In this document: positions 3,570 through 21,282 of the stretch, piece after piece
How positions within the stretch are numbered: the stretch's first letter is position 1
Layout: each line of letters starts with the position of its first letter
Virus record (IMG/VR): IMGVR_UViG_3300007770_000007
Location: 13,336 to 77,335 of that record
From: a virus
Strand: one strand, 5' to 3'
Length of the DNA: 64,000 nt
Translations under genes and position numbers: made by a program
Notes under the pieces: model-generated
The model's database searches: none
Seen by the model: the letters and a program-made list of their open reading frames with translations, nothing else
Told to the model about the DNA's origin: nothing

Positions 3570-5141
3570 ATGGCTCAACCCCCTTGGCTTGTAGATGTTC
3601 TCCAGATTGAACCTGGGTCTGGAGACACCATCACCATTGACCGTGACTCCACTGACGGAGCCATGCAGTTTGTCGATGCGGTGGTCACGTCTGGTGTCCT
3701 GCTCCCGAATCTTGTTGGAATCCGTAACATCACGGGAGTCTTCGTCGTGGGCCGTGCCGGTGACGGCGCTGCTTATACAACGGTCCAGTCAGCGTTGGAT
3801 GCTATCCCTGCCTCTTCCACTGCTTTGGTGCCCTCCCTCGTCCTGGTGATGCCGGGGGTCTACACGGAAGATTTGACCCTTACGCGGGACGGCGTTTACA
3901 TCGTCGGTCTTGGCGGGGCCAAGCTGGTGAATCTTACAGGGACCCACACCCTGACCATCAAGGCTGAATCAACCTCGACCCCGCAGAACGTGCTGCTCAA
4001 GGGCTTGGAGATTGAGAACACCCATGCGGGAGATGCCTGCGTCTATGTTCTCGGGGCTGATACTTTCGCCTCTGGGACTGTCGATGTAGACAACGCACCG
4101 CTTACGGCAGGAGACACCATCACTGTGGGAGGCGTGGTTCTCACAGGAGTTTCTGGAACCCGGACCTCCGGTTCCGATGATTTCTCGGTCAACGGCGCTA
4201 CCACTGACATCATCGCTGCCGAGATTGCTGAAGCGGTCATGGATAGCGCGAACAGCTTCACTGATGTTGTGACCGCGACCTCTGCTCTGAACGTGGTGAC
4301 ATTCACCGCTGTAACGGCAGGCGTTACGGGCAACGCGATCACTTTGGCGGTATCCGTAGCAGTGCCGTTGGACTTGGTTCCCTCTGGCGCAACCCTGGCG
4401 GGAGGCGGTTCCTCCGGGAACCTTGTGGCAAACGGTGCTTTGACCATTGAGGATTGTGTCCTGGTTGCTTCAGGAGCGGGGTGCTTCCAGGTCAACGCAG
4501 ATACCGCGAACCATATTCGAGTGCGCGGTGGAACCTTCCGAGGTTCGGCTGCTACGTCCGTGTTTCAGGCATCCAATACGGCCCAGGTTTTGTTGGAAGG
4601 TGTCGAGTGGACAAATGATTTCCAACTCGCTTACGACAACACCCTGGATCAACCCAACGACACGACCTCCGAGTATCAGATTTTGAACTGTGGCCGTATC
4701 CATGACCTCTCTTGCAATCTGGTTGGTCTGGGTTCCCTCACTATTTCCAACTGCCCCGACATCAGCGTGCTGGCCCAGGATGGTGACCAAACCTTGGCTC
4801 TCAACAACTGTGTGGTGGGCGGGGCTACAACTCTTGGGACTACTACAGCAGCTACGTTCCGCAATACGGAACGAGGAACCCTGGCGATTTCTGGGGGGAC
4901 CCCTACCCTCGCAGAGTCCCGGATCATTGGATCCCAGGCGTTTGTTGCCTCGGCTTCCGAGACAATCACTTTCGACATCCCCCAGCCTGACGCGCTCTAC
5001 ACCGTTGTTTCAGAACAGCCAGGGGGAGGCGTCGTGGGGGTTCAGAACAAACTTGCTGCATCATTTGATTTGGCCGAGGTAGCAGGCCCCGCGACACCGA
5101 TAACCGCGACCGTCAACTACGTCGTGCTTCGAGATATTTAG
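3570..5141 (+). CDS. Fibre/spike-like structural protein
   Basis: YTTVQSALDA…VLVMPGVYTE (entry motif of beta-helix proteins), Gly/Thr/Ala-rich, sheath-like beta insertion. Confidence 0.6.
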   Translation: MAQPPWLVDVLQIEPGSGDTITIDRDSTDGAMQFVDAVVTSGVLLPNLVGIRNITGVFVVGRAGDGAAYTTVQSALDAIPASSTALVPSLVLVMPGVYTEDLTLTRDGVYIVGLGGAKLVNLTGTHTLTIKAESTSTPQNVLLKGLEIENTHAGDACVYVLGADTFASGTVDVDNAPLTAGDTITVGGVVLTGVSGTRTSGSDDFSVNGATTDIIAAEIAEAVMDSANSFTDVVTATSALNVVTFTAVTAGVTGNAITLAVSVAVPLDLVPSGATLAGGGSSGNLVANGALTIEDCVLVASGAGCFQVNADTANHIRVRGGTFRGSAATSVFQASNTAQVLLEGVEWTNDFQLAYDNTLDQPNDTTSEYQILNCGRIHDLSCNLVGLGSLTISNCPDISVLAQDGDQTLALNNCVVGGATTLGTTTAATFRNTERGTLAISGGTPTLAESRIIGSQAFVASASETITFDIPQPDALYTVVSEQPGGGVVGVQNKLAASFDLAEVAGPATPITATVNYVVLRDI

Positions 5142-5150
5142 AGGTAAGCC

Positions 5151-6152
5151 ATGAGCAACTTTTGGGACAATACAGGCATCTTCACCGGGACAATCCCGAG
5201 CGCCATTGACCGACACCTTTCCGAGAAGGTGTCAGGCCAGAGTTTTGATTCGGTGCGGGATCTCACGGATGTTTCCAGGGCGGCCAATGCGCTTCCTCTG
5301 AGCACTGAAGCAGGAACCAAGGTGTCCTTTACAGGCGGCCTTGGCGCGTACATGACTTACGAAAACCCGCCTCCAAAGGGTGCTATCGGTGAAGTTGTGA
5401 ACGTCAAATCAGCCAACGGTGACATCACCAATCATGACGGCAAAGTCTTCGTGCAGTGGGATGATGGTAAGTTTCGGGCCATTCATGCGGAACACTTGCG
5501 ATTGGCGAAACAGGGCAAGACCGCAAAGGATTTTGCCTCTATGGATACGGGGGAACTGGGCAAGGCGGTTGCAAAGAAGTTCCCCAAGGCATTCTTCAAC
5601 AAGAAGCAGCAGATGTGGGATCTCGGGGATGGTCGCATGGTCATGTTTGTCAAACACGGGGACAAGAACACCATTGATGTTTGGACTTCGGATAAACGCC
5701 CCAAGAAAATCAAAATGGACATCAGCATTGGCTCCGTGGGGGATGCTGTATCTGCGCTGAAGAAACACAAAGCCGCCTCTGATCTCAAGGCTGACTTCGA
5801 GAAGATCAAGGCCCTGGTCAAGAAGAAGCCTGACAGCAAGTTCTTGAAGGGCTTGCTGAAGCAGATGGCTGACAAGGGTTTCGCCCCTACTGACAAGCAA
5901 ATGGCCGTGGTGCAGAAGATCGAGAAAGAGATCGGGCAGATGGCCGAGATGCAGAAGGAACTGAAGTCGCTCGGCAAGGCGGCCAAGACGATCCGCGTGT
6001 CGAACTTGGGCAACCTCACGGATTTCCTCAAAGCTGCGGACGGGCATCTGGTCCACAAGAGCACCAATGATCTGTGGTCCGTGACCGCCGACGGTGAGGG
6101 TTTCCTTATTGAACGCCTCTTCGATGACGAAGGGCAACCCCTCAAGGGATGA
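5151..6152 (+). CDS. Hypothetical multi-module protein, candidate head-internal protein
   Basis: GAGG RBS; modules separated by KTAK, KAAS, KAAK motifs. Confidence 0.65.
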   Translation: MSNFWDNTGIFTGTIPSAIDRHLSEKVSGQSFDSVRDLTDVSRAANALPLSTEAGTKVSFTGGLGAYMTYENPPPKGAIGEVVNVKSANGDITNHDGKVFVQWDDGKFRAIHAEHLRLAKQGKTAKDFASMDTGELGKAVAKKFPKAFFNKKQQMWDLGDGRMVMFVKHGDKNTIDVWTSDKRPKKIKMDISIGSVGDAVSALKKHKAASDLKADFEKIKALVKKKPDSKFLKGLLKQMADKGFAPTDKQMAVVQKIEKEIGQMAEMQKELKSLGKAAKTIRVSNLGNLTDFLKAADGHLVHKSTNDLWSVTADGEGFLIERLFDDEGQPLKG

Positions 6153-6160
6153 GCCTTGTA

Positions 6161-6175
6161 CGGTAGAGCGCCTAT
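6161..6175 (+). promoter_or_regulatory. Class B (late-type) motif CGGTA-N7-TAT
   Basis: cggta-gagcgcc-tat; one of 18 intergenic copies. Confidence 0.7.
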
Positions 6176-6198
6176 TCTGTTCTGTTTCGTAGGAGAGT

Positions 6199-7455
6199 GT
6201 GCCCATGCGCCCTGACCCAGCACGCATCGCGAAAGCCCATACCCGCAAGCAGCGGCTTGGTGCGTCTGCTGACGGCCAGAAGACGGCTTCCATGTCCCGC
6301 ACTGCTGGTGAGGTTCGCTTCATCAAGGACCGTGGCGGTGACAAGAACGAGTGGGGTTGGGGAAGCCCTGGTCCCAGCGAGCGCCAAATCACGTCCGACT
6401 TCGTGTTTGATCCCAAGTACCTGAAGCCCCTGGCAACGACGATGCGCTCTGCGCTTATGGCTCTGGGCCATGTTTCGTCTGCTCACGACCGCTTTCTCAA
6501 GATCAAGAGCCGCGACGTTAGCCCTGACGGCAGCCTTGGCGGTAAGGGGTACATCCAGAAAGTTTCCGAGATGCGTCGGCAGTTGATGAACTGTTCCGAG
6601 GCCCTGTCTGCTTTCACCGACACCATCTATGACGAGATGGCAGCCCCTCACTGGGATCCTGCCGAGGACACTCTTGATCCGCGTGATCGGGATGAGGTTC
6701 GGGAGATCGTTGAGGAAGCCGAAGAAATCCGAGAGGACCCCACCGGCTGGGCCGACGAGGAAGAGGAAGACGAGTTCGGCAAGACCGCTGGTACTTTGTC
6801 CTATCGGGGGGACACCCCGCTCGATAAAGCGTATGCGATGACGGATCTTCTCATTGAGCTTGGAAAAGACCTCCCCACCGGATCTTCCCGAAGCCGGGAG
6901 TTCAAAGCAGTCAAGACTGCCCTCCGAAGCCTGGAGGGGTTTGTGAAGGGCATTGGTTCGGACACTCCAAGGCCACGCGCAGCCCAGACGGTTCGCCGCA
7001 AGACGGCTGCATGGGCAGGCATCGACTACATGCGCGGAGATGACCGCTGGACTCTTGGCAAGGCGGTTGAGAGCCGTCGTGTTCGAGTCCCTTCTGGTTA
7101 CGAGTTGGTTTCAGAGCCGGGAAAGGTCGTGCTTTTCAACTGGGGCGTCTTGGACGAGGGGGCCACCGCAGAGTTTCGATTCATGCCCGATGGCACGAAC
7201 ATTCAGTTCATTATCGACGGGTATAACGACAAGCGTTCGCCCGGTTTGGTTCGGCACAGGTGGGTCGGCAACCCTGTCGATGACGCGGTCCTTATTGAAA
7301 AGCATATCAAGAAGTACATGCCTGCACTTGTGAAAGCAGTCTCGGACGACGAGGAGGACCTTCTTCGAGAAATCGAGAGGCGTCAGCGCATGGCAGGAAT
7401 CCCCGGAAGCACCGCCCGTGTGCTTGCACGGTTTATGGAGGTGAACGGTGAGTAG
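6199..7455 (+). CDS. Hypothetical multi-module protein, candidate head-internal protein
   Basis: AGGAG RBS; PDPARIAKAH at N-terminus, KTAS/RTAG/KTAG/KTAA motifs, C-terminal ARVLARF. Confidence 0.7.
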   Translation: MPMRPDPARIAKAHTRKQRLGASADGQKTASMSRTAGEVRFIKDRGGDKNEWGWGSPGPSERQITSDFVFDPKYLKPLATTMRSALMALGHVSSAHDRFLKIKSRDVSPDGSLGGKGYIQKVSEMRRQLMNCSEALSAFTDTIYDEMAAPHWDPAEDTLDPRDRDEVREIVEEAEEIREDPTGWADEEEEDEFGKTAGTLSYRGDTPLDKAYAMTDLLIELGKDLPTGSSRSREFKAVKTALRSLEGFVKGIGSDTPRPRAAQTVRRKTAAWAGIDYMRGDDRWTLGKAVESRRVRVPSGYELVSEPGKVVLFNWGVLDEGATAEFRFMPDGTNIQFIIDGYNDKRSPGLVRHRWVGNPVDDAVLIEKHIKKYMPALVKAVSDDEEDLLREIERRQRMAGIPGSTARVLARFMEVNGE

Positions 7456-9610
7456 CGACAAGCCCCTCGATGTTTTGGGGGAGAGTCACCTTCCGGCTGA
7501 CCTCCTCACCCCTACCCTTGGCTCCAACTACGGTATGCCTGGGTTTGAGGACATGCACTACAACCAAGGCGTCCTTGAAGGCGTCCTGGATCCCGAGTTG
7601 ATGCCTCCTCCCGCGTTGCCTACTGGGCTGGAGCGCGTTGCTGAATCAGACATGGGCGTCCAGGAGATGATGAAGGAGGCCGAGTTGGCCGACCTGTCTT
7701 GGCTTGCCGATGCAGAACAAGACCCCGAGCGTCTCCCCCAGAACCCGGTTGATTTGGGAATCCCGGAACTTGAGGAAGCCTGGGGCGTTGATCGCCGCAC
7801 TAACGGTATCCAGGTGTTCTCTACGGATCTTGCCCACGCCAAGGCGTCGGCCCCTGACACGCGCCTCCCCATGAATGAACGCGACTTGTCGGACATTCTG
7901 GTTACGGCCATGCGGCGCTCTGCGGCTGGTGAGGACATCAGCCTGATCATCGAACAGTCCCGAATCGCCGCTGGCGTGGATGCAGATCGAATCGAGAAGG
8001 GGCTTTCCATTATCCGCAGCGAGCATGGTCTTGCAGGAAAGGTCTTTGTTCGTGCCGCCGCATACCCCTCTTATGAAAAGGGGAAGTACCGCGACGAGAT
8101 TCTGAAGGCCGCCAAGGGAGCCGAGTACATCCTTGTCTCGGGCCAGGACTTTGGTTCTACTCATATCCAGAACGGTCGCTGCACTGTAACGGGCAAGAAG
8201 GCCGTCCTTGAGGTTCCTTGGAGCAAGGCCCTGTCTCACTACAAGCCTTTGTTGCTTGCTACGGGGCATCGGGTAGCTACGGACGTTCCAGCAAAGGATG
8301 CCCTCCGGGCCGCCTTTCTTGCACCGACCTCGTTGCCGGTTGCACGCGGTGAGCGTCTTCCTCGTTACAAGGCTGTATGCGATACGGTTTCTTCTGAAGA
8401 GGCTGCGGCAAGCCTGAAGGCCGCCGACAACACTCCCACGGAAGTCCAGGTGACAGACGCCGTGTTGAATCGACGGCTTCAACTCTGGAAGCAGAGCAAT
8501 ATGATTGACTCTGACTTGGTTGAGCAGATTCAGGCTGCCGATCTGACGCCGAACCAGAAGTTGGCCCGTGCTCTCGATGCGGTGAACGCTCGTCGTAACG
8601 GGACCTCTGGTTTCACGGGTGCCCCTAACACCGCCGTTGAGGCGGCCCAGAAGCGCCAGCATCTCCGTCTTGTCCGTAAGGACCACGCCAAAGAGGCTTC
8701 TGAAGCACGGCTCCGAGAAATCGTCGCTTTCCGAAACTCCGATGATCTGGACCAGCGCATCGCAAAGGTCATTGAGAAGATCGAGCAGGGCGCACGCGGT
8801 TCTTACCTCAAGTCCTTTATCAACAAGGTGATTCCGCAGAAGTTTGCTGCTGAAGCAGTGCGTCGGCTGCGTCCAACATTGGAAAAGACCGGTGCCCTCG
8901 AAGAAGAGAGCAAGGCCGCTTCCTATGATGGTCATGTTTACGAACGTGCCCCCGAGGTGCGGGAGGCTGTGGAGCTTTCTGATAAGGACGCGGCGCTCGC
9001 CAAGGCTGCTTCTGATGGTGATGTTTCTGTTTCGGAGATCAAGGGTGTCCTCAAGTGGGCCTCTCGTCATATGTCCCAAGGGTCTGCCGGAAGTGAGCTT
9101 ACTGAACTGCTTCGTCATCGTTTCTCGAACCGGATCCTCAAGTCTGCTTCGGGATTGATTCAGAGTATTCGCGACACCCACGAGGGCGCTGCTGGATTTC
9201 TCTACGTTGACTCCGAAGCCTACATGGCTCCCACAGGGGTGAAAGGTTGCGAGACAGGTGCCCTTCGTCATCGATCCAACCAGCTACCTGCTGTCCTGGC
9301 CAGTTCCCGGTGCCAAGGGTGTACCCGAGTTTGCACACTTTCCTGCGGCACGCGGAAGTGCAGCACCTACAACAAGGTGCTTCTGGAGCGTTCGGACCTT
9401 CCCGGAGACATCAAGTCCATCAAGAAGGCCAACATCACCGGGGCAGACCAGACGGATGCGGAAGGTATTGCTTCCCTGTTCGGCGCTACCTATGACCCGG
9501 ATGAATACAACCTTCGCAGTGCGGATTTCGAGGACGAGGTAGAACTGGCCCCGCTCCCCGAAAACGAGAAGATTGGTGAAATCGTCTTGGGTGGCTTCCT
9601 GTGGGAGTGA
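7448..9610 (+). CDS. Large hypothetical protein (Cys-containing; candidate prohead core protein)
   Basis: 720-aa ORF coupled to its neighbours in the head gene block. Confidence 0.65.
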   Translation: MSSDKPLDVLGESHLPADLLTPTLGSNYGMPGFEDMHYNQGVLEGVLDPELMPPPALPTGLERVAESDMGVQEMMKEAELADLSWLADAEQDPERLPQNPVDLGIPELEEAWGVDRRTNGIQVFSTDLAHAKASAPDTRLPMNERDLSDILVTAMRRSAAGEDISLIIEQSRIAAGVDADRIEKGLSIIRSEHGLAGKVFVRAAAYPSYEKGKYRDEILKAAKGAEYILVSGQDFGSTHIQNGRCTVTGKKAVLEVPWSKALSHYKPLLLATGHRVATDVPAKDALRAAFLAPTSLPVARGERLPRYKAVCDTVSSEEAAASLKAADNTPTEVQVTDAVLNRRLQLWKQSNMIDSDLVEQIQAADLTPNQKLARALDAVNARRNGTSGFTGAPNTAVEAAQKRQHLRLVRKDHAKEASEARLREIVAFRNSDDLDQRIAKVIEKIEQGARGSYLKSFINKVIPQKFAAEAVRRLRPTLEKTGALEEESKAASYDGHVYERAPEVREAVELSDKDAALAKAASDGDVSVSEIKGVLKWASRHMSQGSAGSELTELLRHRFSNRILKSASGLIQSIRDTHEGAAGFLYVDSEAYMAPTGVKGCETGALRHRSNQLPAVLASSRCQGCTRVCTLSCGTRKCSTYNKVLLERSDLPGDIKSIKKANITGADQTDAEGIASLFGATYDPDEYNLRSADFEDEVELAPLPENEKIGEIVLGGFLWE

Positions 9611-9613
9611 CCT

Positions 9614-12600
9614 GTGGCTCCTCGTCACCCAAATCCTGAAGCGGTAGCGACACTGAAGCAGGCCGAGATGTCCACAGAGGCATCGGTGGCCTTGATGAAG
9701 TGGCTCTCCCGAGTCACCCGAAAGGCCGGGGTAGCGCAGCACGTCTACGTCGTCGGCGGTGCCGTCAGGAACTTCCTGCTTGAGAAGCCCATCAAGGACA
9801 TAGACATGGTGGTGGATTCTCTCGCACTGCGCGGGAATCGTGACGCCGCTTGGGTGGCGCAGCAGGTAGCCCGTGCAATCCCCGCCCCTACCAAGGTGTG
9901 GACCGATAGCCTGATGGTTTCTCATATCACTGTGGAGGGTCCTTGGAGCCTTGACGGCCATCAGATGGAGGGGGAGGAGATCGAGATCGTCAACGCTCGC
10001 TTGGAGGAGTACGCGGTTGACCCCCAGACAGGTGAGTACACCGGACACAAGCCGGAACGGGTCGAACCCACCACGATGGAGATCGACATTTCTCGCCGCG
10101 AGTTCACGTTCAATACATTGATGTGGACGCTGCTGTCGCTCGCCAATGGCCCTGACAAGGCCGAAATCATTGACCTCACGGGGTGTGGTCTAAAGGATCT
10201 AAAAAACCGCGAGATGCGCTGCCCTGGCGACCCCGACGAGACATTCGCGCAGGACCCCACCCGGATCATCCGCACCATCAAGTTCGCCTTCAAGTACGGC
10301 ATGAAGCTGCCGCCCGACGTGAAGGCAGCAGCTATCCGGCAGGCCAAGGGACTCAAACGCATCCCTTCCAAGACCCAGAGCATTCTTCAGAAGATTGTGT
10401 TGGATAACCCCCAATACAAGAAAGCCCTTGATGTCATGGATCGCCTTGGCGTGAACGCAGTCATCAAGGAGATAATGCTGGAGAACAAGCCCTTTCGGTC
10501 CTTTATGGAGAGCCACGCCAGAAAGAAGGGTGTTGCTTACATGCTTGATCTGATGGACGTGGGCATCCCTGTAGGCGCTCCAATCTCTTTCCTTGATGCA
10601 GCGCAGCAGAAGCGTTTTCGGGAAGTAACGTCTGTTATGGATCGTGACGCCGCTTTGGATTTTTTGGGTATGTTGCGCCAGACGGGCAGTGCCTTGGGAG
10701 GGGCTACCCTGGCTTTGGCGCAAGAGCACGGCTATCGACAAAACGAAATGCGGGATTTTTCACCCGTCTTGAATAGGGTTGTGCGGGACCTTCTCCTCGA
10801 AGATCCTTCTTTGGCGGCTTCTTCATCGAGGCTCGTTCAGCGGGTTCGTCGGGAACTGCCTCGTCAACTGCCCCGACGGGCAAGCTCTGCTTTGGTTTAC
10901 GGCACCCCTTCGGATGCCGACCGCGCAACTATGGAAGCCCCCACTCCCATATTTCCCCTCGCGTTCGAGGATTTTCACCTGATCCCGCCCCCCGACCAGG
11001 AGGAAACCCTTGAGGAGCTTCAAGACCTACGCGAACTCGCTGAAGAACAGCGCCCGGAAGCTGAAGAGTTCATCAAGGAGTCTGATGGGGAGATTCTCCA
11101 TCTCTTTGATCGTCTGTGGCGCGATCATGGTGTCCGAGTCGATAAGAGGTGGATGCGAGAGATGGTCAAACAGGCGAAAACCCACGTCGCCAAGCTGAAG
11201 TGGCACTTCAATCGCCCACGTCCATATCAGGTAGGGGACGCTATCGGACAGCCCTTCGAGGCACTTGCTTCAGAAACGGCCCACTCCCCTTCGTACCCAA
11301 GCGGTCATGCCATCCAAGCGTTCCTCTTGGGAGAGGCATCAAGCCGCCTGGACCCCGAACATGCGGCTGAATACTTTGATTTGGTTGACCAGATTGCGTG
11401 GGGTCGGGCGCAAGCAGGCTACCACTGGCCCAGTGACATCCTCTACGGCGTTGAAGTTGCTGACCATATGGCTGACTTCATGGATGTTCCCGAGGCTTGG
11501 AGTCCTCGCGTGGCGCGGATCATGGAGAGGAGGGCTTCACACGCCCTACAGAGGCATCGCTGGGCCAAGACGTTCACCGTCAACAAGGGCGATCCTATCT
11601 GGTACGGGAAGTATAAGAACAAGCGGGGGATCATTGATGGGTTCAGCACCAACGAGAAGGGTGACGTGATCATCACCGTCGAACAGGTGCCTAATCCAAC
11701 TGGCCGCAAGCAGCCCAAAGAGTTGAAGCTGTTCCGGGTGCGCCCCCGAGAGGTGGAGGAGGGCAAGGAGGCAAGCCCCCGTCGCGTCGTAGCCAAGTAC
11801 AAGAGCAAGAAAGAGGTGCCCAAAGCAGACGGCAGCGGGACCACCACTGTTTACGAGTACGGCCCTCGGCAGGTAGCCCAACGCCATAAAGAAAAGGCCA
11901 AGAGATTGGAGGGGTTGAAGGCATCCCTTTCTGATTTGAGGGGTCAGGTTTCGGAGGACATGGTGTCAGACGACCCGGAGACGAGGCTTACGGCTTTGGC
12001 GGTGGCGTTGCTCGACAAGACTTATGAGCGCGTGGGTAACGAGAAATCCGCTGATGATCGTGGCCATTTTGGAATCACGACCTTGCGGGTCAGCCACCTG
12101 GACCTGAAGGACAAGAAAGCCACCTTTGAGTACGTTGGCAAGAGCGGGGTGAAGCAGAAGAAGGTTGTGACGGACCCTCAAATCATTGAGGTTCTCAAAG
12201 CGGCAGTGGACGGAAAAGAGGGTGACGAGCGCATTCTGTGCGACGGCGATGATTGTCAGATTCGAGCGCGGCACGTCAACGGTTACCTCAAGCCGTTTGA
12301 CATCACGGCCAAGGATCTTCGGGGGCTACATGCCAATGAGGAGATGCGTGTTCGGTTGAAGGATGTTCGCAAGAAGGGCGAGAGCCTTCCCCGAGGTCGA
12401 AAAGACCGAGACAAGATCCTAAAGGCAGAGTTCAAGGAAGCATTGGAGGCGGTTGCAGAGGCGGTGGGGCATCAGGCATCCACGCTCCGGTCCCAGTACC
12501 TCGTGCCAGGGCTGGAGGACTTCTACATGAAGGACGGGACTGTTATTGATGATTTGGCCAAGGCTGCCTCTCTGGGTCGGGATGCAGGCTTTCGTTCGTG

Positions 12601-14755
12601 GCTCATGGGGATCGTCAGTAAGTCCACGGTGGTCAAGGCGATCTTTGAGTGGGGTGAGCAAAAGCTGGACGGCCCAGCGGATCTTCCAGGAGGGTTGGTT
12701 CCCGAGGGCTACATCTGGAAGATGGGCGGTAGTTGGTACGCCAGCATTGGAGATGGTTTCCGGGTCCAGAAATACAGGAGCGAGCGCGAAGCTACCCGAG
12801 GGGTTCGGTTCTCGCGTGTGGCTCATACGCTTCTCCTGAAGCAAGCCACGAAGTCTGAAGCAGAGCGTGAAGAGGAAGAGGCCCAGCGACTTGTGCGTAA
12901 GTCCCCCAAGAAAAAGCCGCCTCGGGTGGACCTGGAACGCCGTCATGTCGAGGATTCGGATTCCGAAAGGGATCCCGATAAAGAGCAAGATCGGAAGGAT
13001 ACGTCCCACAACTTCAAGGACATCGCCGCCTCGATGGCCGCTCGGCGTGTAGCTTTTCGGTACAGGAAGGCCGAGGAGTTTACGGAGCAAGAGTGGAAGA
13101 CGTATAAATCCAAGCACCCAGGGGCCAATAAGGACGACCACACGATCCGGTCAATAGGTGAGGACGACGAGGATGGGGGTGCGTCCGAGGATACCTGGGA
13201 AGAACTTTCCTCTGATGAGCAAATGGATCTCTTGGCAGAGGGCGCAGGGACCGAGTTTGGGAAGATTCAGGACGAATACCCCAACACCACGATCACTGAA
13301 GAAGACGTCCAGGACATGATGATGGAGCAAGCTGCGGAAGGGGTGGACCCTTTCAGCCCAGCAGCGGCCAAGGAACGCAAGGACCAGATCAAGAGCCAAG
13401 CGGCGATGGATTCGGCGTCCAACAACCTCGTCCTCCTTACCCAGTCTTTTGGAGGTGACGGGTCCGAGAAGGTTGAATCAGCCCTTCAAGGCTTGAAGGG
13501 TGATGACCGGGCAACATTCCTTGAATCATATGAGAAGGCGCAGGAAACCGCCAAGGCGCGGGACTCTGCGGTTCGAGGCGACCCTGCCGCCCGTAAAGAG
13601 TTGCTCACCCTTGCCGAAAGCCTTGATGCGGTTCTGGCCTCCATCAAGGACGGAAACCCAGGCGTGATGGGAGAGGTGCTGGCGCTATTCGAGTATGCCT
13701 CGAAGGTTCTGTTCAATCCTTCCCTCATAGACCCCGCCAACCCAGTCTCCGATAGCCAGGGTGTCGTGACGGGCGACGACCTCGCGAAGTCGAAAAAGCG
13801 CAGCGCAACTCATGCTGCGAATGCCTTTGAACGCTTCAAGGAGGCAAGCCCCGAGGAACGCGCCCATTCCCGTGAAGCACTCGCCCAGCAGTTGGAGGGT
13901 CTTCCTGACGGGTCTGCCGCGAAGGTGGAGCTTCAAGGTGTTGTTTCAGGACTGCTTGCCGCGTCAGCTTTGCATGACGGGGAAGAGGCTACTGGCGTCG
14001 GACCTACGATGCAGCTTCTCGTCAAAGCACTCGATAAGGCTGGGGCAGCAGGTCCCGATGGGGCCTTGTTTGCACCGGTTGGGGGCGACCTTTCCACTCC
14101 AGAGGCGCAGGAGGGCATCCGGGCCGCCCTCACTGACGTGCTTGACGAAGACTGGGGAAGTTTGGTCGAGGAGGATGACCCCATCTTCCCTATCGCGGAG
14201 TTGTTGAGTGATGAATCCGCTGATTTGGGGATGGAGGATAAGCAGTTTCTTCGCACAATCATTGCTGATTATTTGACGGATGAAATCACGGTGGTGGAAG
14301 AGGCGACTCGCGAGGATCATCAAAAGGATGAGCCTACTACGGGCGACGTGAAGCAGAGCTTGAAGGAGCGCCGGAAGAAGGACAAGTCTCGGATGACGTC
14401 TGCCCTTCGGGATGCGAAAGGTCAGTTCTTGGACCAATCCGCTATTGACGAGGCGCAGGGTTCTGGGGCGAAGCAGGATGACGAAGACGCCGATACTTCT
14501 GCCGAGTCCGAGGGTGCAGGGTCGGAAGACACAGAAGAAAAGAAGGAGGAGGGTGCAGAGCGGAAGAAGGGATTCTTCGCCGCCCTTCTTGATGCCATCT
14601 TCCCTGATTCGAGAAAGGATAAATGGCAAGCCATCGTTGAAGGCGACGAGCCTGAATCTTCGACGGAAAAGACAGCCCTTGATCGTTATGATTTGCAGCC
14701 GTGGGACACTTCCAAACTTCCAACGGGAAACTCTGTCCCGTTAGATGCGCGGTAA
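9614..14755 (+). CDS. 1713-aa polyprotein: CCA-adding/poly(A) polymerase-type nucleotidyltransferase + PAP2 phosphatase/haloperoxidase + small SH3-like domain + DNA topoisomerase IB + acidic unknown domains
   Basis: NTase: VVGGAVRN…KDIDMV, RREFTFN, QDPTRIIR. PAP2: KWHFNRPRP, PSYPSGH, RAQAGYHWPSD. Topo IB: ERVGN, FGITTLRVSH, GKSGV, TAKDLR, VGHQASTLRSQY. Confidence 0.88.
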   Translation: MAPRHPNPEAVATLKQAEMSTEASVALMKWLSRVTRKAGVAQHVYVVGGAVRNFLLEKPIKDIDMVVDSLALRGNRDAAWVAQQVARAIPAPTKVWTDSLMVSHITVEGPWSLDGHQMEGEEIEIVNARLEEYAVDPQTGEYTGHKPERVEPTTMEIDISRREFTFNTLMWTLLSLANGPDKAEIIDLTGCGLKDLKNREMRCPGDPDETFAQDPTRIIRTIKFAFKYGMKLPPDVKAAAIRQAKGLKRIPSKTQSILQKIVLDNPQYKKALDVMDRLGVNAVIKEIMLENKPFRSFMESHARKKGVAYMLDLMDVGIPVGAPISFLDAAQQKRFREVTSVMDRDAALDFLGMLRQTGSALGGATLALAQEHGYRQNEMRDFSPVLNRVVRDLLLEDPSLAASSSRLVQRVRRELPRQLPRRASSALVYGTPSDADRATMEAPTPIFPLAFEDFHLIPPPDQEETLEELQDLRELAEEQRPEAEEFIKESDGEILHLFDRLWRDHGVRVDKRWMREMVKQAKTHVAKLKWHFNRPRPYQVGDAIGQPFEALASETAHSPSYPSGHAIQAFLLGEASSRLDPEHAAEYFDLVDQIAWGRAQAGYHWPSDILYGVEVADHMADFMDVPEAWSPRVARIMERRASHALQRHRWAKTFTVNKGDPIWYGKYKNKRGIIDGFSTNEKGDVIITVEQVPNPTGRKQPKELKLFRVRPREVEEGKEASPRRVVAKYKSKKEVPKADGSGTTTVYEYGPRQVAQRHKEKAKRLEGLKASLSDLRGQVSEDMVSDDPETRLTALAVALLDKTYERVGNEKSADDRGHFGITTLRVSHLDLKDKKATFEYVGKSGVKQKKVVTDPQIIEVLKAAVDGKEGDERILCDGDDCQIRARHVNGYLKPFDITAKDLRGLHANEEMRVRLKDVRKKGESLPRGRKDRDKILKAEFKEALEAVAEAVGHQASTLRSQYLVPGLEDFYMKDGTVIDDLAKAASLGRDAGFRSWLMGIVSKSTVVKAIFEWGEQKLDGPADLPGGLVPEGYIWKMGGSWYASIGDGFRVQKYRSEREATRGVRFSRVAHTLLLKQATKSEAEREEEEAQRLVRKSPKKKPPRVDLERRHVEDSDSERDPDKEQDRKDTSHNFKDIAASMAARRVAFRYRKAEEFTEQEWKTYKSKHPGANKDDHTIRSIGEDDEDGGASEDTWEELSSDEQMDLLAEGAGTEFGKIQDEYPNTTITEEDVQDMMMEQAAEGVDPFSPAAAKERKDQIKSQAAMDSASNNLVLLTQSFGGDGSEKVESALQGLKGDDRATFLESYEKAQETAKARDSAVRGDPAARKELLTLAESLDAVLASIKDGNPGVMGEVLALFEYASKVLFNPSLIDPANPVSDSQGVVTGDDLAKSKKRSATHAANAFERFKEASPEERAHSREALAQQLEGLPDGSAAKVELQGVVSGLLAASALHDGEEATGVGPTMQLLVKALDKAGAAGPDGALFAPVGGDLSTPEAQEGIRAALTDVLDEDWGSLVEEDDPIFPIAELLSDESADLGMEDKQFLRTIIADYLTDEITVVEEATREDHQKDEPTTGDVKQSLKERRKKDKSRMTSALRDAKGQFLDQSAIDEAQGSGAKQDDEDADTSAESEGAGSEDTEEKKEEGAERKKGFFAALLDAIFPDSRKDKWQAIVEGDEPESSTEKTALDRYDLQPWDTSKLPTGNSVPLDAR

Positions 14756-14764
14756 CGTTCCTAT
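14750..14764 (+). promoter_or_regulatory. Class B motif upstream of the protease/scaffold operon
   Basis: cggta-acgttcc-tat. Confidence 0.7.
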
Positions 14765-14807
14765 ACCTTCACCCTATGAGCGAGACTTGTGCTCGTGGAA
14801 TCCCTGT

Positions 14808-14844
14808 CCTTACAGGACCCCCTTACAGGACCCCCTTACTGGAG
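14808..14844 (+). repeat. 13-bp tandem repeat in a 5' leader, running into the RBS
   Basis: ccttacaggaccc x2, then ccttactggag. Confidence 0.8.
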
Positions 14845-14851
14845 AATCGTC

Positions 14852-15913
14852 ATGGCCGACAACCTTACCCGGAGCGGGGCACGGGCCTTCACCGAGACCC
14901 TTGACCGTATCGCTACCGCCGTTCAACACAATGCAGCCCTTTTGGGCCTCCCCTCGAACATTGCCACCGACTTCGCCTTCCGCTGCGATTTGGTTAGCGA
15001 TGCGGTGGAGAAGCAAGCGGCGGCCAACTTCCCTTTGAAGCAAGCTGACTTCAACGCCGATGAGATTGGCGAAGAGGTTCCGGGTCCTTTGGTTGATGAT
15101 CCTCCCAATGCACAGATCGATGAACACTTCACCCAAGAGAAGTTCCACGAGCTTACCGAGATGGCAGACGCCGAAGAAGCCGCCGACAAGCTGGCTTCTC
15201 TGATGGAAGAGGCAGACCGCGTGATGGAAGCCGCGATGCCCACCATCAACGTCCAAGGATTCCGGGGCTTTACGGATCAGGTTCGCCGTTTAGACGAACT
15301 CTCCACCGAAATCGAGATGCTTGAAGCAGAGCTTGAGGCCGCCACCAGCGGCCTTTTGTCGCGCAAGAAGGATCTCGACAAGGAGATGAAGGCCGCCGTT
15401 GAGGTTCTCAAGAAAGACTACAAGGAGAATCTTTCGGCACAGGGCAACGTCATCATCGAGCGCAAGACCGCTCTGGTGGACGCCCAGGCAAGGTTGGCAG
15501 TCGTTGCTCGCAGGCGCACTCCGCAGAAGGTCCGGGATGAACTCCTGGCCGCTCTTGCCGAGGAGTACGGTGAGAGTATTCGTCAGCGCCTTCCTGAACT
15601 GGAGAACGCACTGCGCGAAGAAAAGAAGACTATGGCTGTCGCCTTCAAGGGATTCGAGCTTGAGATGCGTACCGCGTCCGTTGCTGACAAGAACGCTGGT
15701 GTCCTCGACAAGCTGGTTCGCTTCCGCGAATGGCTCGTTGGTGGCCTGAAGCGCATTGTCGGTATGGCAGAGCAGGCCACTCGTCTTTTCAAGGGCGTGG
15801 GCCGCAAGATGGAGAAGGACACCTCCATGTTCCTGCGGGAACTCGACCAGTTCGAGTCCGAGATGGGCAAGGCTGCCACCGAAGTCCACGGTTTCGATTT
15901 CTTTTCCGAGTAG
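14852..15913 (+). CDS. Coiled-coil hypothetical protein (candidate prohead core/internal protein)
   Basis: Likely start MADNLTRSG at 14852 after GGAG; KQAD, RTAS, KNAG, KAAT motifs. Confidence 0.7.
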   Translation: MADNLTRSGARAFTETLDRIATAVQHNAALLGLPSNIATDFAFRCDLVSDAVEKQAAANFPLKQADFNADEIGEEVPGPLVDDPPNAQIDEHFTQEKFHELTEMADAEEAADKLASLMEEADRVMEAAMPTINVQGFRGFTDQVRRLDELSTEIEMLEAELEAATSGLLSRKKDLDKEMKAAVEVLKKDYKENLSAQGNVIIERKTALVDAQARLAVVARRRTPQKVRDELLAALAEEYGESIRQRLPELENALREEKKTMAVAFKGFELEMRTASVADKNAGVLDKLVRFREWLVGGLKRIVGMAEQATRLFKGVGRKMEKDTSMFLRELDQFESEMGKAATEVHGFDFFSE

Positions 15914-15922
15914 GAGTCTCCG

Positions 15923-16489
15923 TTGAAGACCGGCACTAACAACGTCAACTGGCAAGAGAGAGCCACAGAGTTCTCTGTCGGTGATCTCGTGGGAATCTTC
16001 GGAGCCTACGAGTCTCAAGCAGGCCGCGTAACAGCGGTCTGGCCTGCTATTGGCATGATTGATGTTGAAATGCCTAACGGCAACAAGCGGTTCCCTGCGG
16101 AAGACCTCCAGCGTTACGACGGCAACGGTAACGCAGCCCCGCCTACCACAGACTCTGCTCCGGGAGGCCAGCCTACGGTTTCGGTTCCAGGAGGCCCTTA
16201 CGGTAAGAGCGCGTCTGCTGAAAGAGTTGCTGAAGCAGCCGTGCGTAGAGCTTTGTACTGGGCATCCACGGATCGTAAGTACAAGTTGACCCGCTCTGAA
16301 AAAGACGGTGGGGCTATCGGTTGTCCCAAGTGCAAGGAAGGCTCCCTCAAGCGAGCAATCTACAAGCGTAGGGACGGTGCCAGCGAGCGCCTGATGGGAT
16401 GTCCTGGGTGCATGTTTCTCATCAAGGAACTCGATATTGTGAACTTCCTTGGGGATAACGCTGAACTTGAAGTCGGAGAGGAGGGTTAG
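15923..16489 (+). CDS. Hypothetical protein with SH3-like N-terminus and C-terminal Zn ribbon
   Basis: FSVGDLV…GRVTAVW; CPKC…CPGC; KSASAERVAEA linker. Confidence 0.7.
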   Translation: MKTGTNNVNWQERATEFSVGDLVGIFGAYESQAGRVTAVWPAIGMIDVEMPNGNKRFPAEDLQRYDGNGNAAPPTTDSAPGGQPTVSVPGGPYGKSASAERVAEAAVRRALYWASTDRKYKLTRSEKDGGAIGCPKCKEGSLKRAIYKRRDGASERLMGCPGCMFLIKELDIVNFLGDNAELEVGEEG

Positions 16490-16491: not shown

Positions 16492-17904
16492 ATGGCTTTT
16501 GCCAAGTACGCCAAGGCGATGGTCCTCCATCCTCGTGTCAATGCTGCCTCTTGGGGCGGTATGCAGCGTACTGCGTCTTCTACCCCCACCCGCGACCTCT
16601 CCGCGCAAGCCACCACGATTCTCGGCACTCCTTTTAGCCCGGACCAGTACCTCCTTACCCACTGCACTATTGTGGGATCGGTTGAGGTAGAGAAGGTAGC
16701 GGGCGCGAAACTCGGGAACGTCAAGATCGGCAGCCGTACCATCAACCGTAAGTACGCCGACTACTACATCTCCCCTGAATCATCCGCGATGGTGAACAAC
16801 AACGGGGATTCCTGGAGCCGGGATGTCTTGCTGAAGTCTTACCGGACTTTCATCGGCTCCCACAACTTCCAGGAGCATGTCCAGATTGAGGAGCAGTCGA
16901 AGGGCCGCATCATTGATGCCGTAGCCCGTGACGTTGGCTCTTCGGTTTATATCGACATCCTCGTTGCCACTGACCGAAAGCACGCAGCACTTGTCCAGGA
17001 CATTGAATCCGGCAAGATTGCAACGCTCTCTATGGGCTGCACCACGGATTTCACCATCTGCACGAAGTGCGGTCATGTTGCCGCTGATGAGACTGAACTT
17101 TGCGACCATATTCGGTATGCGAAGCTCAACACTTTCATGGATGGCGGCGGCAAGAAGCGCGTGATTGCAGAGCTTTGCGGCCATCCCGACTACGATGAGA
17201 CGGGTGGCGTGACGTTTATCGAGGCGTCTTGGGTAGCGACCCCGGCCTTTTCCGGCGCTGTCATGCGGAACATTTTGAGTCCTGCGGAGGCCACCTCCCA
17301 GACCCAGAAGTTGGAACAGGTCCTCTCCGCGCCCCCAGAGGCATGGTCGCAGGACGCGATTGCGAAGGCAGCCTCTACGGTACGCGCCTTTGGTTTTGGC
17401 GAGGATGATGAAAAGCCCGCCGAAGAGGCACCCGCTGATTCAGGGAAGCCTTTCACTGACATCGAAGACCAAATCTACGACATGGTGAAGAAGCGCGTTC
17501 AAGAGCGCCTTCAGAAAGACATGGCTGATTCCAACGTGGAAGAGCAACTGGATAACCCAGGTCCTCCGTCCACTTGGCCCAACGACACCCTTCAAAAAGA
17601 GGGCAAGCTCCACCAGTACAAGACTGCTATTCAGACGGTTGTGCGGGTGGCGTCCTCTGACGTAGCCCTCGTTGACGGGGTTGCTGCGGTCAATGATTCC
17701 TACGGAGTCAAAGTTGCACGGGACATTTACCGTGCGGTTTTGGCTGCGGGAACCCCTTCGAGCCATCCTGACTTGAAGTCCTTTCTTGCTGCTCTTGGCT
17801 CCGCTACGGGTCGCAAGATGTCCTCTGCCGAAGTTCGGGTAGCAATCCGAGTCGGCTATCTGCTTTCCCGCCGGGCGAGCAAAACCACTCAATCCGTTAC
17901 CTGA
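16492..17904 (+). CDS. Prohead (capsid maturation) protease
   Basis: NNNGDSW, NFQEH…SKGRIIDA, LSMGC…ICTKCG…CDH, FIEASWVATPAF; lies before the scaffold and capsid genes. Confidence 0.8.
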   Translation: MAFAKYAKAMVLHPRVNAASWGGMQRTASSTPTRDLSAQATTILGTPFSPDQYLLTHCTIVGSVEVEKVAGAKLGNVKIGSRTINRKYADYYISPESSAMVNNNGDSWSRDVLLKSYRTFIGSHNFQEHVQIEEQSKGRIIDAVARDVGSSVYIDILVATDRKHAALVQDIESGKIATLSMGCTTDFTICTKCGHVAADETELCDHIRYAKLNTFMDGGGKKRVIAELCGHPDYDETGGVTFIEASWVATPAFSGAVMRNILSPAEATSQTQKLEQVLSAPPEAWSQDAIAKAASTVRAFGFGEDDEKPAEEAPADSGKPFTDIEDQIYDMVKKRVQERLQKDMADSNVEEQLDNPGPPSTWPNDTLQKEGKLHQYKTAIQTVVRVASSDVALVDGVAAVNDSYGVKVARDIYRAVLAAGTPSSHPDLKSFLAALGSATGRKMSSAEVRVAIRVGYLLSRRASKTTQSVT

Positions 17905-17923: not shown

Positions 17924-19246
17924 ATGAGTCGCGAACGAATGACCTGGACCGATGACAAGCAGGCTTCTGAAGCCCCTGCAACCCCGTCCGACAGCGAGGG
18001 AGCCGCAAGCCCCGCCGCCAAGGAAGACCCCGCACCAGAGGCTTATGCCAAGGGCGACACTGAAGAGTGGGCCGAAGGCAAGGACGAGTCTCCTGTGGTG
18101 GAAAGCGAAGCACCTGCTGTGCCCAGCGAGAGGCAGGCTGCTGCCATGCTTGAGCGCAAGGCTGCCAAGTGCATCCGTCTTGCAACTGCCATGCTTGGTG
18201 ATGGCGCTTCTGTAGAGGCCATCGAAGACCAAGCTCTCGCCTTTATGGATATGGACGACCGTGCCCTCCATTCTTCCCTTTCTCGCCTTGGCGAAGATGC
18301 AGAGAAGAAGAAAGAGGACGAGGAAGGCGCAGAGGCAGAGGCAGCAAAGACCATCCAAGAGGACAAGGAGCACGCTGCTGAAGCCAAGAAGGCCGATGAT
18401 TCTGCTGACGAGGCCATCGACAAGGATGATGCCAAGGCTGCTGAAGAGGATCTCGCCAAGGAAGCTACCGACAAGGAAGCTGTCGAGAACCGTCTTGCCA
18501 AGATCGAGGAAGCCTTGAGCATCCTTGTGGGAAAGAAGGCCGAGGATGACAGCGGCGACGAGGCTATGGACGACGACAAGAAGGCTTCGGGCCACTTGGA
18601 CGAAGACGAAGCCATGCTCGAAGCCATGCTTGCCGAGGAAGGCATGATGGAGAAGCCCGAGGCTATGGAAGACCCCGAGGCGATGCTTGAGGAGATGCTT
18701 GCTGAAGCAGAAGCCGAGGCTATGGCCGAGGAAGTTGCCGAGGCCATGTCCGCAGACCCCGGTGTTCCCGGTGAGGAAGCCCTCTACGAAGATGGCGAGT
18801 CGCATGATCCGGGCGACCATGATCCCGACGGCTTCGAGGAGTCGATGGTGGTGGACGAGGCTGTCATGATGGCAGATCCGGTTGTCGATGATCCGATGGG
18901 CGTCATGGCTCGCGACCTGGACGAAAAGGATAGCGAGATGCTCGCAGTTCTCTTCGGCAAGCAGGCTGACGACGATGACGACGAGGACAAGGACGAAAAG
19001 GAAGACCACGACGAGGGTGCCATCAAGGATGATGAGGACCACATCGAGTCCCTTGAGGAAGACAAGGACGAGGAAGAAAAGGACCTCAAGAAAGAGGAAA
19101 AGAAGGCGGCCCGTAAGCCCCAGCCTAAGAAGGCCAGCAAGGGCGCGAAGCGTCTTGGCGGTGTCTCCAAGTCGGCAGGCAACGAGGTCGGCAACCTTTC
19201 CCAGCTTTGGGAGTCTGCTCCCGACGTGAGCCGGTTCTTCAACTAA
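17924..19246 (+). CDS. Capsid scaffolding protein
   Basis: Highly acidic, Glu/Asp/Ala-rich; between protease and decoration/capsid genes; many K-x-A sites. Confidence 0.7.
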   Translation: MSRERMTWTDDKQASEAPATPSDSEGAASPAAKEDPAPEAYAKGDTEEWAEGKDESPVVESEAPAVPSERQAAAMLERKAAKCIRLATAMLGDGASVEAIEDQALAFMDMDDRALHSSLSRLGEDAEKKKEDEEGAEAEAAKTIQEDKEHAAEAKKADDSADEAIDKDDAKAAEEDLAKEATDKEAVENRLAKIEEALSILVGKKAEDDSGDEAMDDDKKASGHLDEDEAMLEAMLAEEGMMEKPEAMEDPEAMLEEMLAEAEAEAMAEEVAEAMSADPGVPGEEALYEDGESHDPGDHDPDGFEESMVVDEAVMMADPVVDDPMGVMARDLDEKDSEMLAVLFGKQADDDDDEDKDEKEDHDEGAIKDDEDHIESLEEDKDEEEKDLKKEEKKAARKPQPKKASKGAKRLGGVSKSAGNEVGNLSQLWESAPDVSRFFN

Positions 19247-21034: not shown

Positions 21035-21076
21035 GAAACCCCCGGTTGGTTCGCCAATCGGGGGTTTCTTGCGTTT
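21035..21076 (+). terminator. Intrinsic terminator after the capsid gene
   Basis: gaaacccccggttgg-ttcg-ccaatcgggggtttc followed by ttgcgttt. Confidence 0.8.
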
Positions 21077-21112: not shown

Positions 21113-21282
21113 TCAAGAGGAGGGATGGGACACCCAGACTGATTCGACAAAGGTGGAGGGCGATCAAGACCCGTTGACCACTGCGCTACCCACAAGACCG
21201 AGCAGCGGCGAAACCTTGTCAGTCTAAACGCCATACGAGTACCGAGAGGTCCGGGACGAAAGTCTCGGGCCTCGTTTGCTTT
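21113..21282 (+). ncRNA. Candidate structured small RNA (~165 nt)
   Basis: Own promoter motif, no credible ORF, stems agactga/tcagtct and caaaggt/accttg, ends in a GAAA-tetraloop hairpin plus T-rich tail. Confidence 0.5.
21246..21282 (+). terminator. GAAA-tetraloop terminator hairpin
   Basis: gaggtccgggac-gaaa-gtctcgggcctc-gtttgcttt. Confidence 0.7.

Follow-up and report, generated by a model that had tools for sequence, protein, structure and literature searches.

The proteins closest in kind to the one described here are the polyvalent proteins, in which a single phage-encoded chain holds several unrelated and highly shuffled enzyme domains, the genes being located beside virion morphogenesis genes, and which have been linked to virion delivery (Iyer, Burroughs, Anand, de Souza, Aravind 2017, PMC5512222). 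The subject of this study is a chain of 1713 amino acids (aa), here called the cargo protein, which is encoded in the virus record IMGVR_UViG_3300007770_000007. The window, by which we mean the whole stretch of 64,000 nucleotides (nt) that was analyzed, is the 3' 64 kb of this 77,335-bp IMG/VR viral record. The completeness of the record was given as 17% (CheckV), which implies a genome of about 450 kb.

The cargo protein resembles them in that it joins 3 enzymes, a nucleotidyltransferase (NTase), a PAP2 phosphatase and a type IB topoisomerase (Topo IB), with further modules in one chain. The cargo domains 2H, InPase, and ART-PolyVal are common to the polyvalent proteins and to the family of the cargo protein, and the proposed logic is the same, namely that a ready-made enzyme kit is delivered with the DNA. 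In contrast, Topo IB, CCA-type NTases, and PAP2 are not listed for the polyvalent proteins (PMC5512222). The cargo family also has a backbone of its own, composed of an SH3-like domain, Topo IB, a charged block here called C1 and a helical domain, as well as its own RVAxRY motif (the RVA tag), and is found in huge phages with a capsid of the phage-G type. Furthermore, unlike many polyvalent proteins, the cargo protein showed no fusion to a MuF or portal domain and no metallopeptidase in the Pfam scan, so that a built-in processing peptidase of the MPTase or zincin kind is absent from the list of shared traits. Our overall reading, toward which we lean slightly, is that the chain would be a capsid-carried, protease-cut enzyme kit with functions in tRNA repair and as a DNA swivel.

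Other comparisons concern parts of this reading. In T4, Alt and the internal proteins IPI-III, as enzymes or anti-defense proteins, are packaged into the head through an N-terminal targeting peptide and are cut by the prohead protease gp21. The cargo family is similar in that a short conserved peptide heads modules and stand-alone cargo genes, and in that a prohead protease is encoded in the adjacent part of the locus. The T4 proteins are, however, small and single-function, with no sequence similarity to the 1713-aa chain, and both the role of the tag and the cleavage are in our case predicted ones. The Topo IB of vaccinia is carried in the virion core and provides a functional precedent for an encapsidated enzyme of this type. 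The enzymes of variola/vaccinia and of Deinococcus radiodurans have the same fold and catalytic pentad as the cargo Topo IB, which, unlike the poxvirus and bacterial enzymes, is situated inside a multi-enzyme chain of a tailed phage, after an SH3-like domain and an RVA tag and before C1.

Stand-alone Topo I proteins of the cultured jumbo phages PaBG, Lu11, Motura, and phiRSL1 have been described as products of DNA-topology genes (Iyer et al. 2021, PMC7824862). These have a tyrosine-recombinase fold like that of the cargo Topo IB, with a structural match in BFVD, but the identity is only about 27-30% over the catalytic core, and they are about 550 aa long, carry no fused cargo and are not encoded in the head module. 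In RNA repair systems, such as T4 Pnkp/Rnl and the multi-domain "Swiss Army Knife" proteins (Burroughs and Aravind 2016), a phosphatase or phosphoesterase that heals ends is paired with an enzyme that restores or seals them, a pairing also proposed here, and relatives of the cargo protein carry HAD_SAK_1, 2H, cREC_REC, CPD, and RNA ligase domains. The cargo protein differs from them in having PAP2, in lacking a kinase or ligase, and in being fused to a DNA topoisomerase and to the backbone of a head locus.

The fused protein and its enzyme modules

The cargo protein is encoded by an open reading frame (ORF) at positions 9614-14755 (+ strand, stop included), which starts with GTG and is free of stop codons over 5139 nt. 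The start follows the upstream gene's stop by 3 nt and a GGGAG Shine-Dalgarno sequence by 6 nt, and the N-terminus matches that of the nearest homolog, P0003, from residue 4 on. An earlier interpretation, made from the letters of the window and here called the sequence-only reading, had described a single protein that joins an NTase, a PAP2 phosphatase and a Topo IB in the head module. This description was borne out by the intact ORF and by matches in Pfam and PDB, the PolyA_pol head, PAP2, and Topoisom_I all exceeding the Pfam gathering scores, and every catalytic motif that had been named for the 3 enzymes was found at its place.

It is very improbable that the ORF arose as a chimera during assembly, or that a sequencing error joined several genes into one read-through frame. 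The contig comes from a metagenome, and in other phages the modules do occur as separate genes, but the same full-length architecture was identified in independent samples. The homolog P0003 (1704 aa, 69% identical) comes from a different sample, and L008 (1708 aa, 67% identical) has the same order of NTase, PAP2, SH3-like domain, Topo IB, C1, and C3, a block within the helical domain. Because these independent full-length copies share the module order, the assembly chimera against which the sequence-only reading had cautioned was ruled out. In addition, the cluster of P0002 contains 7 member sequences, the frame is open over its whole length with uniform GC content, and many other fused variants are known. 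On these comparisons, the 3 enzymes are a genuine multi-enzyme fusion with intact and conserved active sites, for which catalysis is predicted.

The first module (aa 1-423; 9614-10882, + strand) is a class-II CCA/poly(A)-type NTase with a head at aa 44-202 and a helical body that extends to about aa 420. The head matched PF01743 (PolyA_pol) over aa 44-202 with an E-value of 2.7e-14 (54 bits against a cut-off of 23), the PHROGs label for the N-terminus was tRNA nucleotidyltransferase, and the sequence matches in PDB were to the CCA- and A-adding enzymes 1miv, 4wby, and 1vfg. The helical region could be aligned with the CCA enzyme of B. stearothermophilus up to residue 293, and the Pfam scan of the cargo protein gave no match to an RNA- or tRNA-binding model. 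The motifs are GGAVRN (48-53), DID (62-64), RREFT (from 161), and QDPTR (213-217), and the residues G48, G49, R52, D62, D64, R161, R162, D214, R217, and R220 were invariant in 56 sequences. Motif B (RRD) and motif D (EDxxR) select the ribose and the C/A bases, and the NTase keeps the key D and R of motif D despite a non-canonical motif B (RRE) and QDxxR.

The departures from the canonical motifs were found to be clade-specific, with N53 in place of the canonical Asp in 54 of the 56 sequences and E163 in 55, while position 213 was occupied by D in 43, Q in 9, and E in 2. Because these changes are themselves conserved in 54-55 of 56 sequences, the alignment identifies the NTase as a distinct clade under selection and not as a decaying copy. 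It was also noted that motif B (RRE-FT, aa ~163-171 of the cargo protein) is interrupted in P0018, P0030, P0043, and P0055 by an intein of about 450 residues with LAGLIDADG and splicing domains. Since inteins usually occupy conserved sites of functional proteins and enzymes, this was counted in favor of a functional enzyme. In some phages, one gene encodes the head (aa 1-~263) and another the helical body (aa ~247-420) (L018:5630-6406 and 7401-9212; L035:3623-4387 and 5149-6177; L084:5980-8061 and 8089-8553).

The second module is a PAP2 phosphatase (aa 424-642; 10883-11539, + strand), which ends with the RVA tag SPRVARIMERRAS at aa 630-642. It matched PF01569 over aa 527-613 with an E-value of 1e-8 (35.5 bits against a cut-off of 27.2), and the best match in PDB was the class A acid phosphatase 7f18 over aa 441-618 (3.4e-10). 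The signature motifs Kx6RP (K527..R534-P535), PSGH (562-565), and Rx5Hx3D (R598..H604..D608) are all present, motif 3 opening with G rather than S, and R534, P-S-G-H 562-565, R598, H604, and D608 were invariant in 29 sequences. No transmembrane segment was detected in the module, the maximal KD19 value being 0.56 there and 1.27 across the whole protein. Since the module has no hydrophobic segment, its sequence places it with the soluble acid phosphatases and not with the membrane lipid phosphatases.

The third module is a small SH3-like beta domain (aa 651-717; 11564-11764, + strand) that starts with AKTFTVNKGDPIWYGKYKNK. The SH3-like assignment, which had been proposed from the sequence, is supported by 4 beta strands in the AlphaFold model at moderate confidence (pLDDT about 57-84), and the domain was identified in 70 of 119 relatives. 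It also occurs as stand-alone genes of 85-91 aa (L017:9974-10231 and L073:7634-7909).

The fourth module consists of an RVA tag (SPRRVVAKYKSKK, aa 721-733) and the Topo IB, which extends to aa 985 (11774-12568, + strand). The enzyme matched PF01028 (Topoisom_I) over aa 756-957 with an E-value of 4e-29 (102 bits against a cut-off of 23.7), and its sequence matches in PDB were to Topo IB of bacteria, archaea, and eukaryotes. The catalytic pentad R806, K843, R903, H953, and Y962 was invariant or at least 90% conserved in an alignment of 35 sequences, the codon for Tyr962 being located at nt 12497-12499, where the sequence-only reading had placed the tyrosine. The fold was confirmed by structure prediction, with pLDDT >90 for aa ~728-984 in the AlphaFold model, and the top-ranking Foldseek matches were D. 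radiodurans 3m4a (1.9e-10, 311 columns, 304-residue chain) and variola 2h7g (4.1e-10). Thus, the model and the Foldseek matches assign to the module the two-domain clamp fold of the poxviral and bacterial enzymes.

Exchangeable cargo on a shared backbone

A word-indexed search recovered 172 long relatives, the best of which were located on contigs of up to 438 kb, and the 172 related stretches confirmed in IMG/VR were on contigs of up to 536 kb. When segments of the cargo protein were mapped onto 119 relatives, Topo IB and C1 (aa 1078-1150) were each identified in 114, the SH3-like domain in 70, and the helical block C3 in 58-73, with the NTase in 55 and PAP2 in 28. This distribution identifies the SH3-like domain, Topo IB, C1, and the helical domain as the backbone of the family, and the NTase and PAP2 as its variable part.

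The sequence-only reading had held that no protein with this architecture had been described. We found no description of the backbone in the open-access literature on Topo IB in huge phages and on polyvalent proteins, where we encountered polyvalent proteins without Topo IB, CCA enzymes or PAP2, as well as stand-alone CCA enzymes and the stand-alone Topo I of cultured jumbo phages. The architecture is nevertheless not unique, given the 172 long relatives and the proximity to the polyvalent proteins. In a tblastn search of the backbone against 50,697 phage records, only LR745208.1 was matched. The Topo protein of this phage has 508 aa and consists of HAD_SAK_1, Topo IB, and the start of C1. The cargo slot of LR745208.1 (L004), which is the closest complete relative, has been invaded by 2 IS605 OrfB/TnpB genes and a GIY-YIG/NUMOD3 homing endonuclease gene (4054-5355, +; 7523-8806, -; 14232-15092, +).

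It had been suggested that homologs might carry different cargo between the same linkers, and this proved to be the case. The RNA-repair-type domains RNA_ligase, HAD_SAK_1, 2H/LigT, cREC_REC, and tRNA_lig_CPD were identified on the same Topo IB backbone, as were NUDIX, InPase, ART-PolyVal, DUF5661, ChaC, GNAT, carbonic anhydrase, an AAT-type hydrolase, and inteins. Judging from these domain matches, the swappable N-terminal enzymes are mostly RNA-end repair domains. In LR745208.1, HAD_SAK_1 occupies the place of PAP2 directly before Topo IB; the PAP2 cargo and this exchange of PAP2 for HAD_SAK_1 between nearest relatives are, from the comparison of the loci, particular to this window. PAP2 was also found together with 2H in P0012, P0013, and P0017, a pairing that fits a two-step route in which a cyclic phosphate is opened and the monoester is then removed.

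The chances tilt slightly toward a role of the phosphatase and the NTase in tRNA repair. The idea gains comparative support because PAP2 holds the place that RNA-end-healing enzymes occupy in related proteins, and because the CCA-type NTase to which it is fused is the same. Among the relatives, this NTase and Topo IB are likewise joined to RNA_ligase, HAD_SAK_1, 2H/LigT, cREC_REC, and tRNA_lig_CPD. It is quite unlikely, although compatible with packaging, that PAP2 instead destroys immune signaling nucleotides or their precursors, and that the NTase tails or modifies host or phage RNAs or acts on a substrate other than tRNA. Such targets would suit the NUDIX, InPase, ChaC, GNAT, and ART cargo in the relatives, which are not RNA-repair enzymes, and for the 2H domain of polyvalent proteins it has been argued that degradation of 2'-5' or cyclic nucleotides is more likely than RNA repair (Iyer et al., PMC5512222). 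The changes in motifs A, B, and D of the NTase point the same way. Against these targets, the chains of relatives carry the dedicated RNA-repair domains RNA_ligase, HAD_SAK_1, cREC_REC, and tRNA_lig_CPD, motif D retains its base-templating D214 and R217 in all aligned sequences, as expected of a C/A-adding enzyme, and in PDB the NTase is matched best by tRNA enzymes that add CCA or A.

The tRNA-repair role is also weakened by the properties of the 2 enzymes themselves. The class A acid phosphatases, to which the best PDB match of PAP2 belongs, are broad phosphomonoesterases that act on many small phosphomonoesters, and to our knowledge PAP2 enzymes are not known as RNA-end phosphatases. The NTase motifs are non-canonical (VRN, RRE, QDxxR) and no tRNA-binding Pfam domain was matched, so that its substrate could differ.

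Module borders, the RVA tag and the C1 block

The sequence-only reading had placed the module borders at junction peptides, and all 5 of these are present (RRAS at 421, RRAS at 639, KEAS at 718, KAAS at 983, and KQAT at 1076). The peptides are not distinctive by themselves, since the pattern [KRQE]xA[ST] occurs 12 times in the cargo protein. The borders flagged by them do, however, match the points at which genes naturally end in phages that encode the modules separately. In a survey of 80 related loci, we identified in the same slot 17 different stand-alone "tag-Topo" ORFs, the majority about 350 aa long, as well as stand-alone NTase genes, "tag-SH3" genes of 85-91 aa, and separate C1-headed proteins. 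Projected onto the cargo protein, the ends of the stand-alone genes fall at aa 417-434, 626/717, 711-724, 983-1004 or 1069-1070, and 1053-1074. The first of these positions represents the ends of the NTase genes, while the N-ends of the tag-Topo genes project to aa 711-724 and their C-ends to aa 983-1004 or 1069-1070. The junctions are thus supported by gene fission and not by the [KR]xA[ST] motif, and the alignments identify the cargo ORF as a fusion of at least 5 modules that are separate in related huge phages.

RVA-type helices had likewise been noted at the junctions, and such tags are located at aa 630-642, 721-733, and 1066-1078. The third tag, FSRVAHTLLLKQA, follows a variable segment after Topo IB (aa 986-1065; 12569-12847 with the tag, + strand), which was modeled with low pLDDT and is shared by few relatives. 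The motif, (A/S)(A/S)A-R-V-A-A-R-Y-L, was found 158 times in 120 family proteins compared with 9.5 +/- 3.1 times in shuffles, although the proteins are related and the counts are not independent. It stands before the SH3-like and Topo domains and closes C1. Within the first 50 aa, it was present in 25 of 124 cargo-slot ORFs and in 20 of 836 unassigned ORFs, and it was not found at the head of homologs of the major capsid protein, the protease, the scaffold-like protein or the upstream gene, with the exception of 2 of 15 homologs of the ORF at 6199. A peptide resembling the RVA motif near the C-terminus of the protease was rejected as a cargo tag, as it is part of the protease's own conserved C-terminal domain (GRxPSxAExRxLIRLGKLLSR).

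In the window, the motif also heads the ORFs at 2810, 6199, 21943, and 33186. The ORF at 33186-35036 (+ strand, 616 aa) has the tag SPARVAARYA at aa 20-29 and a weak match to DUF4258 (E 8e-4, below the cut-off), and the ORF at 21943-22572 (+ strand, 209 aa) has the tag SPSRVAARYA at aa 5-14, which is kept in 3 of 5 homologs. The tags suggest that the products of these 2 genes may be further cargo. The ORF at 6199-7455 (+ strand, 418 aa) has an N-terminal tag of the RIA type, PDPARIAKAH, and a C-terminal ARVLARFM; its homolog in LR745208.1 has SPSRVAGRML at the corresponding position.

The region after Topo IB had been described as unknown acidic domains. It was resolved into the charged block C1, an all-helical domain that was modeled with confidence, and an acidic C-terminal tail. 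C1 (ATKS..EEEEAQRLVRKSPKKKPPRVDLERR..DPD..QDRKDTSHNFKD..RRVAFRY; aa 1078-1150; 12845-13063, + strand) follows the consensus ATK[ST]..E.EDEEAERLVRP.PKKKPPR.D..R...DPD...D.KD.S.N.K, to which the cargo protein matched with an HMM E-value of 7e-34. When 1.84 billion representatives were searched with a profile of C1, 546 clusters were recovered, of which 419 reached E<=1e-10, and in most of the 546 clusters C1 is located at residue 1 of a protein of 900-1300 aa. The stand-alone C1 proteins begin 4-7 residues ahead of the conserved ATK(S/T/D). No Pfam family was found for C1, and no Pfam domains were found in the 8 stand-alone C1 proteins that were scanned. The fused form seen in the window is thus the less common one. 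The finding that C1 begins the chains of a very large family of stand-alone proteins, as defined by profile matches, is new here. As C1 was predicted to be mostly disordered in the AlphaFold model, we read it as a segment that suggests a conserved linear interaction region.

The all-helical domain of unknown fold (aa ~1229-1574, including block C3 at aa 1340-1520; 13298-14335, + strand) was modeled by AF2 with a pLDDT of 84.8 and a pTM of 0.75. It had no sequence relatives in PDB by phmmer, its best fold match, at a VIA-align wide Z of 6.7, was below the chance level for helical bundles, and searches of BFVD and the Atlas gave E-values >0.5 and no usable match, respectively. The acidic C-terminal tail (aa 1575-1713; 14336-14752, + strand) has low pLDDT and a YDLQPW motif near its end. 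An aromatic-x-PW motif at the C-terminus was considered as a family feature and rejected, as it is present in only 28 of the 119 relatives.

Head-gene context and proposed role

The cargo gene sits in a co-directional block of head genes. Counts of neighbors cover the 80 related loci, many of which are incomplete at their ends. Immediately downstream are 2 conserved genes (14789-16489, + strand), the first for an acidic coiled-coil-like protein of 374 aa with homologs downstream on the same strand in 48 of the 80 loci, the second for a protein of 188 aa with such homologs in 62. The 188-aa protein (15923-16489, + strand) has an SH3-like N-terminus, an internal AERVAEAAVRRALYW, and a CPKC...CPGC zinc ribbon, and in these 62 loci its gene is located directly upstream of the protease gene. 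The gene for the prohead (head maturation) protease (470 aa; 16492-17904, + strand; phrog_18299, 1.2e-14) lies 1.7 kb downstream of the cargo gene, which agrees with the earlier statement that the latter is just upstream of the core and protease genes, and it was found downstream on the same strand in 61 of the 80 loci. The protease is 46% identical to Tunturi_5 gp331 and 36% to phage G gp19.

Further downstream, a protein of 440 aa (17924-19246, + strand; homologs in 52 of 80 loci) contains 31% Asp+Glu, has a pI of 4.2 and a basic C-terminal tail, and is a putative scaffold by its composition and position. The gene at 20140-21012 (+ strand) encodes the major capsid protein of the phage-G gp27 type (PDB 6wkk, 2.6e-66), which was found downstream in 43 of 80 loci and is 88% identical to that of LR745208.1, a 485-kb uncultured phage, 49% to that of Tunturiibacter phage Tunturi_5, and 40% to that of phage G. 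These phages also have the core of the protease in common with the window. Only 2 strong terminators were detected within 5-21.5 kb (21035-21068 and 21246-21273, +); both are located after the major capsid protein gene, where they flank a non-coding stretch of about 180 nt. The cargo gene is transcribed with the head genes of a huge phage of the phage-G type.

The 720-aa gene upstream of the cargo gene, conserved in 37 loci, was rejected as a portal candidate, as no match was obtained in PDB (with the single sequence or an 11-sequence profile), Pfam, PHROGs, NCBIfam or the ESM Atlas, nor to phage G gp14 by hhalign. For a protein of 523 aa (3570-5141, + strand), a 6-sequence profile weakly matched the beta-helices of pectin methylesterases (2ntb, E 1.5e-4), so that it may be a beta-helical fiber or decoration protein whose gene opens the structural block. 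The last ~350 residues of a protein of 1758 aa (52612-57888, + strand) match a tail sheath (phrog_2839, 3e-28), and for a sheath-related protein this length is unusual. The gene at 49025-51034 (- strand) encodes a DNA ligase of the NAD-dependent LigA type, which has adenylation, OB, HhH, and BRCT domains; a weak match to PF09414 belongs to this enzyme, and an RNA ligase was rejected on that ground. No tRNA genes were identified in the 64-kb window, but since the sequence available amounts to only about 17% of the genome, such absences mean little.

We consider it probable, by analogy, that the cargo protein is packaged in the capsid. This is inferred from the comparison with T4 Alt and the internal proteins, and from the recurrence in the family of the typical polyvalent domains 2H, InPase, and ART-PolyVal. 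The chain would be recruited into the prohead through address elements, either the RVAxRY helix that heads the modules or C1, or both. The neighboring prohead protease would then cut it at the module junctions, a proteolytic processing to which we assign about even chances, and the products would exit the capsid together with the DNA. Once inside a new host cell, the phosphatase would strip the 2'/3' phosphates left by host defense nucleases that cut tRNAs, after which the NTase would restore the CCA end. Topo IB could serve as a swivel because type IB topoisomerases need neither ATP nor Mg2+, and may relieve torsion in the ~450-kb genome while this is packaged, ejected or transcribed for the first time, a role also attributed to the encapsidated poxvirus enzyme.

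It is rather unlikely that the cargo protein is instead an unpackaged cytoplasmic multi-enzyme, made late along with the head proteins, in which Topo IB relaxes the concatemer ahead of the terminase, the NTase and phosphatase maintain the tRNA pool late in infection, and the tags are motifs for complex assembly. The position in the head module would suit such a packaging-related role equally well, and the Topo I of cultured jumbo phages is regarded as a DNA-topology enzyme and is missing from the 14 virion proteins that were identified in PaBG. On the other hand, the cargo repertoire overlaps with that of the virion-delivered polyvalent proteins, and enzymes for RNA repair and counter-defense would be most useful at entry. 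Moreover, a conserved N-terminal block on variable proteins of ~1000 aa, together with a common tag in the cargo slot, resembles capsid-targeting peptides more than assembly motifs.

Several further observations weigh against the capsid-carried, protease-cut kit. Neither MuF and portal domains nor a built-in peptidase were detected in the cargo protein by Pfam (peptidase E<=1), a result that also suits the cytoplasmic alternative, and the adjacent upstream 720-aa gene gave no match to a portal. The presumed cut motif [KR]xA[ST] is loose, with 12 matches of which 7 are inside domains, and fused proteins can work uncleaved. In some cultured jumbo phages, Topo I is the product of an ordinary replication-type gene. 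The family has no cultured member, and the cultured phages G and Tunturi_5 share the major capsid protein and the protease but have no cargo protein. No topoisomerase is mentioned in the paper on the phage G particle proteome.

More generally, we propose tentatively, as a possibility that falls somewhat short of probable, that huge phages with phage-G capsids have a peptide-addressed loading of cargo, similar to that of encapsulins and mediated by RVAxRY, C1 or both. The load would comprise a Topo IB swivel, independent of ATP and Mg and required for handling a half-megabase genome when it is packaged or ejected, and swappable enzymes for RNA repair and counter-defense, supplied in the form of a single protease-cut chain or from individual tagged genes.

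If this is true, the largest phages would bring with them an enzyme kit, an energy-free DNA swivel and a means to repair tRNAs damaged by the nucleases of abortive infection, which would be at hand ahead of all phage gene expression. A Topo IB carried in the capsid of a tailed phage would resemble that of the poxviruses, and would bear on the release of twist during the packing and ejection of hundreds of kilobases, while a PAP2 enzyme that acts on RNA ends would represent a new activity for the superfamily. The C1-headed family, with 546 unannotated clusters, constitutes a large group of proteins in the head modules of huge phages. Finally, an address tag common to fused modules and separate genes would provide a simple loading rule for very large capsids, which could be used for foreign proteins.

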